A DNA stretch of 63,953 nt, the filler included, from Collodictyon triciliatum (lineage: Eukaryota): assembly GCA_043381765.1 (NCBI GenBank). It is 6 parts of 6 records of this genome, joined end to end, with 100 filler letters (N's around TTAATTAATTAA, not from the genome) between each part and the next. Parts side by side here need not be neighbours in the genome. Positions count along the whole stretch, not along the records: positions 1 to 8,917 come from JBHJMP010000546.1; positions 9,018 to 19,929 come from JBHJMP010000547.1; positions 20,030 to 34,347 come from JBHJMP010000548.1; positions 34,448 to 51,785 come from JBHJMP010000549.1; positions 51,886 to 59,935 come from JBHJMP010000552.1; 1 more part is not named here. One strand, 5' to 3'. The notes beneath the pieces are model-generated. The model was given only the letters and a program-made list of their open reading frames with translations. It searched no databases and was not told the DNA's origin. Positions within the stretch are counted from its first letter, which is position 1. Each line of letters opens with the position of its first letter. The position numbers and the translations under genes were made by a program. Positions 1,106-54,819 of the stretch are shown here, one piece after another.

Positions 1106-1448
1106 TTAATTGGATATATGATTACCAGAAGAATTTATTTTTCAAAAAAAAAAATTCTCTTCAACACAAACGAAGCGTATCATTGAACAGAGTTATTACA
1201 GAATAAATCCACTCCCGCAGCTCCTTGTTGTGCCAGGAATGTGCTTTGATGTTGCAGTCCTTTTGTGAGTATTGGCCTCAATTTTCGGTGTGGCCTCGGT
1301 TCTTCAAAAGTTAAAACGCGTGAGACAATTACCAAATATATATATGTATGTAAATAAGTAAATTCCCTATTTAACATTCATTTGAGGGGTGAAATTTCAT
1401 CTTGATTCTTTATAGGAGTAAACGCCATTTTATCTTGATGTATCTCTC

Positions 1449-1478
1449 ACTTTGAATCGAATAAAGAGGAAAAAATGG
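1449..1478 (+). mobile_element. Micro-insertion family A, copy A1 (30 nt)
   Basis: ACTTTGAATCGAATAAAGAGGAAAAAATGG between TGATGTATCTCTC (1436-1448) and TGTTGTACCTCTC (1479-1491), 11/13 identical. Nearly identical to the copy at 2345. Confidence 0.75.
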
Positions 1479-2344
1479 TGTTGTACCTCTCGCGGTTGCT
1501 TGCTTGGTTCATTAGGGTGATGTAAGTGGTCTGTGTTAGCGGCGTCTTGAATCCAGGGACTATCGGCAGGGTTGAGCAGATGTTTTCTGATTCTGTATAG
1601 ATTGCGCCCTCCCAACCATAGAGCTTTGAAGACATTGTGTCGAATGAAGGGACTTTATATCTTGCAAGGATTGTGTCTGAAAATTGTAGCCTATACCCAA
1701 CCCACCAATTTTCTGACCCTAAACCAAAAGGCAAAGACGATAGTTCAGAGTAAAAGAAAGCGCATTTTTCCACTTTTGTGCTGAAACGAGTCTGGAGCAG
1801 CAAAGGTTTGGTTTAAGATTTTGTGGGAAATAAATAGATGTCGATTTTGGGTGTGATTTTTTTGCTGGGTATTTAAACCCGGTATGTCATTCGACTACAT
1901 CGCCACGCACGGTTAACCCAATCTACTCGTCGAGATTGTTCGCTGTGCGTAGTCATCAGTCGTGATTGATGTCTCTTGCTCTTGCTCTTGCGCATCTAAC
2001 CAGCAGATGCAGCCAAGTAGATCAGGCGCAGTGAGGTGATAGTGCAATCGCTGATCTGTTCGACTAAATGACCAAAGCATGGATGCGGCGGTGTTCTCTG
2101 TGTCGCTTGATAAGGCGTTGTTAATATTTATTCATGCTGTTGCGGCCAACTCAGTCATTCCCAGAAAAAAAAGCTTTAAAGTACCCCACATGGACGGGAT
2201 AGTTATATGTAGGATTGGGTTTGGTTGTTAGGAATCAAAGAGAAAAAATAAACTGGGAAGGGTGGCACGTCCTATTCGTTATTATTATTCCTTTCTATTT
2301 GTAAGGTGGTACGCCCTGATAATGTTTCAACACTGACTTCTTAT

Positions 2345-2374
2345 CCACTTTGAATCGAATAAAGGGGAAAAAAT
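2345..2374 (+). mobile_element. Micro-insertion family A, copy A2 (30 nt)
   Basis: CCACTTTGAATCGAATAAAGGGGAAAAAAT flanked by a perfect 13-bp direct repeat ACTGACTTCTTAT (2332-2344, 2375-2387). Confidence 0.85.
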
Positions 2375-2415
2375 ACTGACTTCTTATAGACTAGCTGATT
2401 TTCTTATCATTTTCA

Positions 2416-2932
2416 TCTTTATTTGAACCGCATTGAAAAAAAGGTATTCGTAAAGGTAAAGAGAAACGGGGTATACTGCAGATGGACATACGAGTAAGAT
2501 ATTAACGATGCTACTACCACAAAGAAATCAGCGATAGCGAGTTGGTCAAGTGGATTGCCGAACTGGTTGATTGGCTGTGCGGGTAGCAGGGGTTGGATGT
2601 GCTGTGGGAGATATCCCACGACACATTCCCACATCTCTCTTCGCTTGCGGTCAGAGTGGCGAAGAATGCGGGCGTATTTCAGCAGGCTGTTAAAAAAAAA
2701 AAGCTGTATTGCACGAGGCTTTCCAGCCTGGATACATCGATTTCTCGTTCGGGTGAATCATTGGAGCGAGAGAATGCGCGCACACTCCATAAGGACCACA
2801 GCATATGTCCCCTTGTGATTGTCCAGAGTATTCTGGAGTTGTGGGACATTGGTATTAGTGCACCAAATGGTACGTCAGACGCGCTGAGTGGGTTGGGTGC
2901 ATTATCAAGCCCAGAGAGCATCTTATGGGTGG
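2416..2932 (-). mobile_element. Possible 5'-truncated, frameshifted non-LTR retrotransposon (ORF2 C-terminus-like) fragment
   Basis: Intronless, GC-richer block encoding PLSASDVPFG...RILWTITRGHMLWSLWSVRA, resembling the W..W..R pattern after the zinc knuckle of L1/Tx1 ORF2. Frameshift at a T run (~2691-2703). Ends TTCAAATAAAGATGAAAA. Candidate TSD atcattttca (2406-2415) / attattttca (2933-2942). Confidence 0.4.
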
Positions 2933-2957
2933 ATTATTTTCACCCCTTCTTTCTCTA

Positions 2958-51720: not shown

Positions 51721-51785
<65 letters not shown>

Positions 51786-51829
51786 NNNNNNNNNNNNNNN
51801 NNNNNNNNNNNNNNNNNNNNNNNNNNNNN

Positions 51830-51841
51830 TTAATTAATTAA
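51830..51841. other. Artificial scaffold linker
   Basis: TTAATTAATTAA within N padding. Confidence 0.97.
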
Positions 51842-51885
51842 NNNNNNNNNNNNNNNNNNNNNNNNNNNNNNNNNNNNNNNNNNNN

Positions 51886-51929
<44 letters not shown>

Positions 51930-52111
51930 GAAAAAAAAATAAAGATATAAACATAAAACAATAATTATGTATTCGGTGAAACCCTTAATATTGATAAAGA
52001 GAAATTCGCGAGGATTCCACCCAAAATTATCATAAATACTTACATGGATTGTTCATGCAGTTAAATCCATAATCATATTTAAACCTCTTTCATACATTTA
52101 TATATCTAAAG

Positions 52112-54819
52112 CTCTCAGTTAGCAAGTACCATGGTCGGAACCCCTTACTACCTGAGCCCAGAGTTATGCGAGAATAAACCTTACAATGGTTATATCTTAA
52201 TTTATACTTTAAATATATTCTACATTAATTACAAAAACATATATATATATTTCGTATATATGCAAAATATTAGCTACTAATTAACAGTATCCATCGGGAC
52301 TTAATTTCACTTTTTTTTTTATTTGCCAATAAAATTACAGCAAAATCCGATGTATGGGCTCTGGGGTGTACATTATATGAACTTTGTACACTAAAGCATC
52401 CTTTTGATGCTACAAACCAGGGTGCATTAATTCTCAAGATTCTTCGAGGAAAGTAAAATTTTGGCGATTTTGTTTTCTATTTTCCCATGCATTCACGAAT
52501 TACCTTTACATTATCGTATTTTTCCTTTCCTATTTTGAAAATGAGGGGCAACTATTGAATTAATTATTGTGTGAATGATGTGTCAAATTCATTCTATAGA
52601 GAACCTGAATAACGCATGGAGTCGAACTCTCAATAATGATTCATATATCTTGATAGATATCCGCCAATAACAGGATACACCGCTGAATTGCGAAAATTTG
52701 TGGATGCATGCCTCACCAGAGACACTGGAGTTCGGCCAGATGCCAACCAAATCCTTTCTCATAGATATTCTGCAATGAAGGTGTACTGCCAGTTTTCATA
52801 TTCATCTTTTATTTTTATTTTTATTTTTTTTAAAAAAAAGGCCTCAATTGAAAGGCAATAGAGAATCAATTATTAGAAAACAAAGAAAAAACAAAGAAAA
52901 AACAAAGAAAAAACAAAGAAAAAACAAAGAAAAAACAAAGAAAAAACAAAGAAAAAACAAAGAAAAAACNNNNNNNNNNNNNNNNNNNNNNNNNNNNNNN
53001 NNNNNNNNNNNNNNNNNNNNNNNNNNNNNNNNNNNNNNNNNNNNNNNNNNNNNNNNNNNNNNNNNNNNNTAGAAAAGAAAAGAAAAGAAAAGAAAAGAAA
53101 AGAAAAGAAAAGAAAAGAAAAGAAAAGAAAAGAAAAGAAAAGAAAAGAAAAGAAAAGAAAAGAAAAGAAAAGAAAAGAAAAGAAAAGAAACGAACAAACA
53201 ATACAGCTAGTTCACAGAGAAGTCGGCCGAGTGTGCGAGATTTGGCATTGGCTGAAGCAGGTTGTTTACTTGTTCGGTAGCTATAAACCATAGTCTGTTA
53301 AAGTCTGAAAATGATACATCTATTTAGTTTGTTAATCAGATACCAAATAGCATATCGAGATGACATTGCGGCTGTTCAGAATTTGCCATCCTTCATGACA
53401 CCAACGTTTAATTCATTGCTATCAATCTTATTCTTATTATTGTTGTTATCTCGCACACCCATTCTCACCCAAACCACTTTTCTTTTATACTAATGAAAAT
53501 CTTTTAAATGCGCCCGTGCAATTAGAAGTATATCCCATACAGGAAAGCCAGAGGAGCTCCGCAGAAAAGAATGGAATTGTGGAGCAGAGGTATCTTTGAC
53601 AACCGATATTTTTTTCATCATTTATTCGATTCAAAATTCTTTGACAACCGAGATGTCATTCTCTCGACAACTTCGACATCATTCAATTATTGAAAATATT
53701 ATATTGGATTAACCTATGCTTCTACACATCCGATATTTCTTTGTCGTAATAGCCACTCGATTGCAATCAAGATCAAGATGATGATTCTGACGATTCCGAT
53801 GATAGCACAGATTCAAACCCATTTATGAACAAAAGTAAATCGAATTAAAAAAAAAGCACTCTAAAAAAGTATTAAAGATATCATTGAGGTAATGAAGAGA
53901 TATGATGTACATGGAGCAATGTCCACCCTATCGTAAACAATTTATGTAGCTTCTGATAAAATCACTTGGAAAATCGTCGACCGCTCTGGGTTGAACTCCC
54001 GAACTGAGTCGAGACCAGGGACATCATCAGCTTCTCGACAGATATCCCATGAGACCGATTATAGACAAATCAAATCGCCTCCATTAGGCAGCACTATATC
54101 TAGGTTGTCAACCGACGAAGAAGCCTTGGATGATGAAGCAGGGGATGAATCTATCGAGGTTGCTCTTATTTGACAGGATGTATGTAGTGTATTAGAACTT
54201 TCCCATTCTCTCGCGTTCGGTGGACTTCAATAATATAAACCCGATAAACGGCTAGAATCATGTGGAGAGATCTGTTGACGAAGAAGCCATGCGAATTCAC
54301 GAACTGGAAGGACTTATTCAGGTATCACGACGACTCTTGCATCTAAATATACCCTGTTTAGTACTTTATTTGATTTCGCACATTATCTTTTCACTTTTTT
54401 TCTTCTAATTTTCACTTCTCAAGAAATCATATATCTACCTTCCCTCCATCTTGTGCTAGGAAACAAAAGCTCAGGTGGTAGATGAAATTGGAAGTGAGAC
54501 GTTTGACCAGCTCTTTGGGTTCTTTAGGGGTAAGTTGTCTGGTGTAGAGCTTATTACTGAGTATCTATGTTTATATTGTTGCCTTATTCGCTTTTACTGT
54601 GCAACTTACATCGCAAATTGTATATATTATGCTCACCTACACCATTGAACTGTACTCCTGTCAGCTCGTGCCGAAGATAGTGCTGACGATGAGCCCAAAG
54701 ACGATGCAGACTCAGACAACGTTGTCCAGTATGTCCTAAGCTATATCCAGCCGGAGCAGATAGACATTATCCAAAAGATATACAGATTGGTTTATTTGGA
54801 AGAGCTCTTGTCCACGTAA
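52112..54819 (+). CDS. NIMA-related (NEK) protein kinase, 5' part missing
   Basis: [64 protein letters not shown]; acidic tail; ends VYLEELLST*. Confidence 0.92.
53607..53637 (-). mobile_element. Micro-insertion family A, copy A4 (31 nt)
   Basis: Minus strand ATTTTGAATCGAATAAATGATGAAAAAAATA flanked by a perfect 14-bp repeat TCTTTGACAACCGA (53593-53606, 53638-53651; 16/17 if extended). Confidence 0.85.

Follow-up and report, generated by a model that had tools for sequence, protein, structure and literature searches.

Introduction

Described short interspersed nuclear elements (SINEs) are ~80-600 bp long and carry an internal RNA polymerase III (pol III) promoter. The 'stringent' tails held in common by pairs of long interspersed nuclear elements (LINEs) and SINEs, as in eel UnaL2, and the Drosophila suffix element, which is the 3′ end of the F element, are tail modules of 60-265 nt with a real stem-loop. 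Processed pseudogenes made by L1 are single events from many RNAs and end in variable poly(A), while miniature inverted-repeat transposable elements (MITEs) end in terminal inverted repeats and duplicate a fixed length of target (2-11 bp). Here we describe a dispersed insert of 29-31 nt with an A-rich end, termed family A, in a 63,953-nt stretch of the Collodictyon triciliatum draft genome (GenBank assembly GCA_043381765.1; the whole stretch is referred to below as the window). Four copies lie between direct repeats of 13-16 bp that are particular to their own loci.

An excerpt of PMC4864456 names Platy-1, at ~100 bp, as the shortest primate SINE. Literature searches on shortest, micro, mini, nano or ultrashort SINEs returned nothing on an element of the family A kind, those on target-primed reverse transcription (TPRT) together with short insertions returned human L1 only, and the core sequence itself was not found as a word. 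The literature searched describes no mobile elements for the host lineage, apparently a relative of Diphylleia rotans, and excerpts of two reports put CRuMs genomes at 12-17% repeats, mostly unclassified, with no account of retroelements in those excerpts (PMC10492846; 10.64898/2026.06.11.730069).

Results

Copies of family A

The family A consensus is ACTTTGAATCGAATAAAGGGGAAAAAA(T), and reading and alignment of the loci delimit four inserts at exactly the coordinates, to the base, where a sequence-only reading of the window had placed them. The first (A1, plus strand) is a 30-nt insert at 1449-1478 that ends in six A followed by TGG, and it is flanked by the left target-site duplication TGATGTATCTCTC (1436-1448) and its right counterpart (1479-1491), which match at 11/13 positions. 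The second (A2, plus strand) occupies 2345-2374, is likewise 30 nt long with two additional C at its 5′ end and a tail of A6 plus T, and lies between identical copies of ACTGACTTCTTAT at 2332-2344 and 2375-2387 (13/13). The third (A3, plus strand), with a diverged core and a tail of A6 plus CAAC, is 29 nt long at 21193-21221, and its duplications, AACTCATTTTCGGGTG at 21177-21192 on the left and 21222-21237 on the right, agree at 15/16 positions. The fourth (A4) is on the minus strand at 53607-53637, where a 31-nt insert of the AAATGATG subfamily with a tail of A7 plus TA is bordered at the element's 3′ side by 53593-53606 (TCTTTGACAACCGA on the plus strand) and at its 5′ side by 53638-53651 (14/14). 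The duplications are thus 13, 13, 16 and 14 bp long in A1-A4, and the locus-specific repeats reported in the sequence-only reading are all borne out.

Two further plus-strand sequences belong to the family and lack recognisable duplications. A5 (ACTTTTGAATCGAATAAA, 32367-32384) is a partial copy that has an exact 16-mer in common with A4 (E=0.031) and includes a fifth exact core at 32370-32384, without the A run; no flanking duplication is detectable. The candidate view of A5 as a long copy was rejected, its downstream flank having no upstream match within the same contig. Possible origins of A5 are a fragment of the source, internal priming of the copy or survival as a remnant. As a separate observation, its flanks (32362-32392) make a short inverted repeat, ACGG...CCGU. 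A6 (AAATCGAATAAATGAGGAAG, 35921-35940, E=0.94) is a decayed or 5′-short copy of the A4 subfamily, with which it aligns over AAATGAKGAA, and it shows no clear duplication.

Alignment of the six copies shows that AATAAA is invariant (6/6), extending to A5 and A6 what had been claimed of the bounded inserts, and separates two subfamilies, with AAAGRGG in A1-A3 and AAATGAKG in A4 and A6. Six copies in 61,527 non-N bases correspond to a density of ~1 per 10 kb. Repeated words of at least 14 nt form 17 pairs in the window, 6 from family A, 1 from a second family (B, below) and 10 that are isolated 14-15-mers, and family A is therefore almost the sole interspersed repeat of the window. Its copies sit on contigs separated by N runs and by N44-TTAATTAATTAA-N44 linkers. 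No long open reading frame (ORF) is interrupted by an insert; a TALE homeobox exon has A1 at 345 bp and A2 at 1.2 kb upstream, both antisense to it.

Statistical support

The window has four exact occurrences of the 15-mer core, as against not a single one in 100 dinucleotide shuffles. Relaxing the search to at most 3 mismatches removed this contrast (13 observed against 10.0 expected, not above chance). The score given to the flanking repeats was that of the best direct repeat, aligned without gaps, on the two sides of a 30-nt gap, with 4000 random non-tandem positions of the window as control. A1-A4 scored 6, 13, 12 and 14, respectively, scores of at least 6 being reached by 25/4000 random gaps and scores of at least 12 by 7/4000. 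A scan for duplications anchored on an A run, with inserts of up to 600 nt, returned only A2, A4, the family B copy B1 and one microsatellite match, its filters having missed A1 and A3. Outside the window, the 23-nt core had no match in metagenome, prokaryote-genome or viral contigs. A looser pattern of core plus A run hit 16 metagenome loci in seemingly unrelated contexts, none of which (0/16) has a flanking repeat, and these look like chance matches. Family A is thus a real and statistically solid feature, retroposon-like in build and unusual in its fixed limits.

Ends, tails and target sites

The 5′ ends of the bounded copies fall at consensus positions 1 (A1), -2 (A2), 2 (A3) and 1 (A4), so that 4/4 lie within 4 nt, in agreement with the earlier argument that a near-constant length speaks against random 5′ truncation. 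None of the six copies found exceeds 31 nt, and any longer copy would include the core that was searched. In the alignment both insert ends are a little ragged. The ACTTTG... terminus is no inverted copy of the ...AAAAAAT terminus, and A1-A4 have no terminal inverted repeats.

At the other end the A run stays at 6-7 A regardless of copy age and is followed by 1-4 non-A bases before the duplication, for which reason it looks templated, unlike variable poly(A). In none of A1-A4 does a poly(A) of variable length abut the duplication, so that the short A tail of the sequence-only reading survives as an A-rich end and not as classical poly(A).

A CTTT-N9-AAAG hairpin, also proposed there, can indeed be drawn, but its stability is no better than that of shuffled sequence. 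The minimum free energies are -0.5, -2.8, -1.7 and -1.8 kcal/mol in A1-A4, and 105, 61, 15 and 48 of 200 shuffles, respectively, fold at least as well as the insert. The suggestion that copying repeatedly aborts at the same hairpin therefore has no thermodynamic basis.

Variable duplications, the A-rich end and the lack of inverted termini make up the footprint expected of TPRT, and the duplications of family A and of B1 (16 bp) fall within the variable ~7-20 bp of L1-clade/apurinic-endonuclease (APE) elements. The footprint claimed at the outset holds to this extent, L1-clade/APE machinery being a candidate for the enzyme. The reconstructed junctions (slash at the start of the duplication) are ATCT/TGAT for A1, CAAC/ACTG for A2, TTTT/AACT for A3, CATC/TCGG for A4 and TTTT/AAAC for B1, and an L1-like TT/AA is found in only 2/5 of them (A3 and B1).

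Duplication identity grades from perfect (A2, A4, B1) through 15/16 (A3) and 11/13 (A1) to nothing recognisable (A5, A6), indicating insertion at several times and agreeing with the earlier proposal of activity over time, which had likewise set imperfect repeats beside perfect ones. The duplication of A4 is perfect although A4 differs from A2 at several core positions, a difference that points to differing source variants and not to age. Together, the two subfamilies and the graded identity of the duplications argue for copying at several times from several source variants.

A second family

Family B has the architecture of family A and an unrelated sequence. B1 (38301-38370, plus strand) is a 38-nt A-tailed insert at 38317-38354 within a 16/16 duplication, AAACTATACTGAAGAA, while the decayed B2 (4323-4399, plus strand) is an insert of ~55 nt at 4334-4388 with a weak 9/11 repeat. 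Kinship between A and B was considered and rejected as not significant, 96/2000 and 705/2000 shuffles scoring as high. The B1 RNA folds at -6.0 kcal/mol, and 5/200 shuffles fold as well. A 12-nt direct repeat, AAAGCAGTAGGA (37778-37789 and 39401-39412), brackets 1.6 kb that includes B1 and ends A/G-rich; since a 12-mer repeated within 7 kb is roughly what chance would give, this stretch is no more than a possible longer retro-insert.

Surroundings in the window

The window, a piece of a fragmented draft, has 38% G+C and contains 22 N runs. Its five joins (8918-9017, 19930-20029, 34348-34447, 51786-51885 and 59936-60035) are N44-TTAATTAATTAA-N44, with a stop in all six frames, and each stands at a contig end in a homopolymer or microsatellite. 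Rfam returned nothing at its gathering thresholds over the whole window, and its loose mode, applied to A2 and B1, gave nothing beyond sub-threshold noise, and ARAGORN found no tRNA.

The Pfam matches in the window are to ordinary cellular genes. Pfam places the TALE homeobox exon at 614-1105 on the minus strand. Within 514-1105, a 164-nt GTATGT...TGTAG intron (677-514) follows the exon just after WFVNARR, and splicing restores WFVNARRRILRKI. This is the sole intron placed, and its length was one reason to reject the family A inserts as mini-introns or introners. The reverse strand reads GT...AG in A2 and A3, but A4 lacks GT/AG, and the inserts lie outside ORFs.

Other Pfam assignments are a cytochrome-b5/fatty-acid (front-end) desaturase gene (~6126-8831, plus strand), a CD36-family gene (55610-59000, minus strand), a C2HC zinc finger, a WD40 piece and an ABC-2 transporter. 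The only detectable homologues of the desaturase and the CD36-family gene are Diphylleia rotans transcriptome proteins. One query is matched at 89% identity across 49% of its length and the other at 51% across 86%, and the blocks aligned by tblastn are 52-75% identical. A homologue search for another CD36 exon found none. The genome is therefore probably that of a relative of this CRuMs flagellate; a weak pointer to Arthropoda, from a CD36 exon, was set aside.

Low-complexity sequence includes a (TATGGTTTTTT)n array of ~540 bp at 46830-47367 and further simple repeats, namely (AGGAAC)n, (AAATAAAAAAGC)n, (CTATGT)n and homopolymer stretches, tens of bases long, of T or A, at 16011-16087, 34162-34347, 62228-62329 and 30700-30800. 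A 27-bp direct repeat, TTATTATTTTTACTTTCTTTTTACTTT, with 19-bp spacing at 41107-41179 is a local tandem duplication in T-rich sequence.

Discussion

A proposed retroposed module

Variable duplications of 13-16 bp, the absence of inverted termini and an A-rich end with AATAAA together form a footprint that fits TPRT and fits no DNA transposase; to our knowledge, duplications of this length exceed those of any known DNA transposase. Insertion mediated by a reverse transcriptase (RT) of some kind, summed over the three RT-based readings considered here, is accordingly very probable. Among these we favour, with a probability of roughly 0.45, the reading in which family A is a discrete module of ~27-30 nt with a fixed 5′ limit, copied in full by TPRT. 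It is favoured because the bounded copies end together, no longer copy is found, no stable structure is present that would account for a stop, and family B is built alike.

The steps of such a copying cycle can be outlined conditionally. An endonuclease/RT encoded elsewhere in the genome would nick the target, a short RNA template would be copied from its A-rich 3′ end, and a second-strand cut 13-16 bp away, followed by fill-in, would duplicate that stretch. The module itself would consist of ACUUUGAAUCGAAUAAA plus GRGG plus A6-7, a template with a fixed 5′ limit, and would most likely have been the 3′ tail of some longer transcript, either RT-encoding or from the host, and have been released or delimited before copying. 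Family A would then be a non-autonomous 'micro-retroposon' whose inserted copies are promoterless and presumably dead on arrival. The insertions, with their duplications, constant limits, subfamilies and differing ages, are established; we infer the RNA intermediate, the identity of the A-rich end as the 3′ end, the enzyme and a master locus.

In its strongest form this proposal would make the ~27-30 nt the entire mobile unit, a discrete small RNA that is recognised and fully copied by a resident RT. It would be smaller than any retroposon known so far, would rank as the most frequent dispersed repeat in the genome of a deep-branching, CRuMs-related protist, and would be one of at least two families that spread in this way. 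We put this form forward tentatively and regard it as doubtful. Were the insert a complete template, it would set a new lower size limit for retroposons, ~3x shorter than the shortest named SINE found, and would show the minimal needs of an RT for recognising and copying a TPRT template. Standard repeat finders ignore such short units and could in that case overlook the dispersed repeat that is most frequent in a genome. With an AATAAA in each of them, the copies could also spread polyadenylation signals.

Several findings weigh against the discrete module. The copies sampled number six in 61.5 kb. Neither an RT nor an endonuclease domain was detected (E<=0.01) in 58 scanned ORF translations, comprising 56 of the 69 N-free ORFs of at least 100 aa plus 2 others, and no master copy, promoter or longer copy lies within the window, so that the longer copies, RT ORF or promoter that the sequence-only reading had thought worth seeking are all absent there. 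An internal pol III promoter does not fit into a unit of 30 nt. The constant A run with its trailing non-A bases is unlike L1-type poly(A), and the polarity of the element is consequently assumed; an L1-like junction, as noted above, is present in a minority of the reconstructed targets. Finally, A5 has an exact core, yet neither tail nor duplication.

Other origins

The reading that survives best after the discrete module is that the inserts are 3′-end copies of a LINE, or of a longer SINE, in which the RT or the joining of the cDNA to the upstream target end stops reproducibly ~30 nt from the 3′ end, or the template is switched early. We consider this possible, if on the unlikely side. It explains the same footprint of duplications and A-rich end, it removes the need to make a 30-nt RNA, and the subfamilies are of a kind typical of LINE lineages. 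The similar fixed limit in the two copies of family B could also reflect a property of the enzyme. Since a unit of 30 nt is too short for a promoter of its own, and since replicating masters must exist somewhere to account for the subfamilies, this explanation is the more economical, and it performs nearly as well as the discrete module. Against it, no longer copy is seen among the six and no RT ORF in the window, the hairpin proposed as the stop is unstable, and truncation normally spreads lengths whereas here all four 5′ ends nearly coincide. If an ordinary LINE did yield the copies as stop products, what has been found shrinks to an odd truncation hotspot.

Alternatively, a resident RT could have made the inserts in trans from a single abundant cellular RNA, copying its extreme 3′ end (the end of an mRNA 3′ UTR, or a small RNA with a short oligo-A tail); they would then be micro processed pseudogenes and not a selfish family. 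The invariant AATAAA agrees with this, encoding or oligoadenylation of the RNA end could explain why the A run is short and constant, and A5, with an exact core and a different sequence following it, could belong to the source locus. However, what follows AATAAA in A5 matches no copy, the two subfamilies imply more than one source, and the Rfam and tRNA searches described above name no candidate RNA, making this origin improbable.

A route that bypasses RT is less probable again. Casposases duplicate ~14-15 bp and Cas1-Cas2 integrates pieces of ~30 bp, so that a ~30-bp duplex might be integrated at the DNA level by a casposase/Cas1-like enzyme making cuts 13-16 bp apart, or by another non-RT route; the slight raggedness of both insert ends, which makes an RNA polarity less certain, is compatible with this. 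We know of no casposase or Cas1-like integrase in eukaryotes, however, and none of the 58 scanned ORFs contains an integrase-like domain. The duplications are not of one length (13 to 16 bp), terminal inverted repeats are missing, and the A-rich end with AATAAA points to an RNA origin.

That the copies arose artefactually, through amplification, assembly or library linkers, is hardly credible even in a fragmented assembly interrupted by 22 N runs and by synthetic TTAATTAATTAA linkers, and with chimeras recorded, in an excerpt of 10.64898/2026.06.11.730069, for single-cell multiple displacement amplification assemblies of related protists, because artefacts would give identical inserts in perfect repeats whereas these copies fall into subfamilies, have diverged cores and, in A1 and A3, substituted duplications, and lie inside contigs away from the linkers. 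The same excerpt describes such chimeras as mostly inversions, which likewise speaks against an artefact.

Comparison with known systems

Family A resembles MITEs in being very short, non-coding, dispersed and flanked by duplications, and differs from them in having no inverted termini and duplications of 13-16 bp. With L1-mediated processed pseudogenes and templated insertions it has in common an RNA 3′ end copied in trans, a duplication and an A-rich end. In family A, however, one 30-nt sequence, whose A run is fixed at 6-7 nt, recurs ~1 per 10 kb.

The likeness to 5′-truncated LINEs and to 3′-tail modules lies in the presence of a 3′ piece only, TPRT-made and set between duplications of 10-20 bp. 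LINE 5′ ends are spread whereas those of family A coincide within 4 nt in 4/4 copies, a small sample. Compared with the tail modules, the fold of family A is negligible and no parent LINE is seen in the window.

Family A is also like SINEs in organisation, being dispersed and non-coding and divided into subfamilies, with variable duplications, a 5′ end at a defined position and an A-rich 3′ end. Nothing in the window searches gives it a SINE head of tRNA, 7SL or 5S likeness (A2 having only sub-threshold Rfam noise), and its unit of 27-31 nt, in contrast to a SINE, leaves no room for a pol III promoter. In length it is about one third of Platy-1, the shortest named SINE found in the excerpted literature (PMC4864456).

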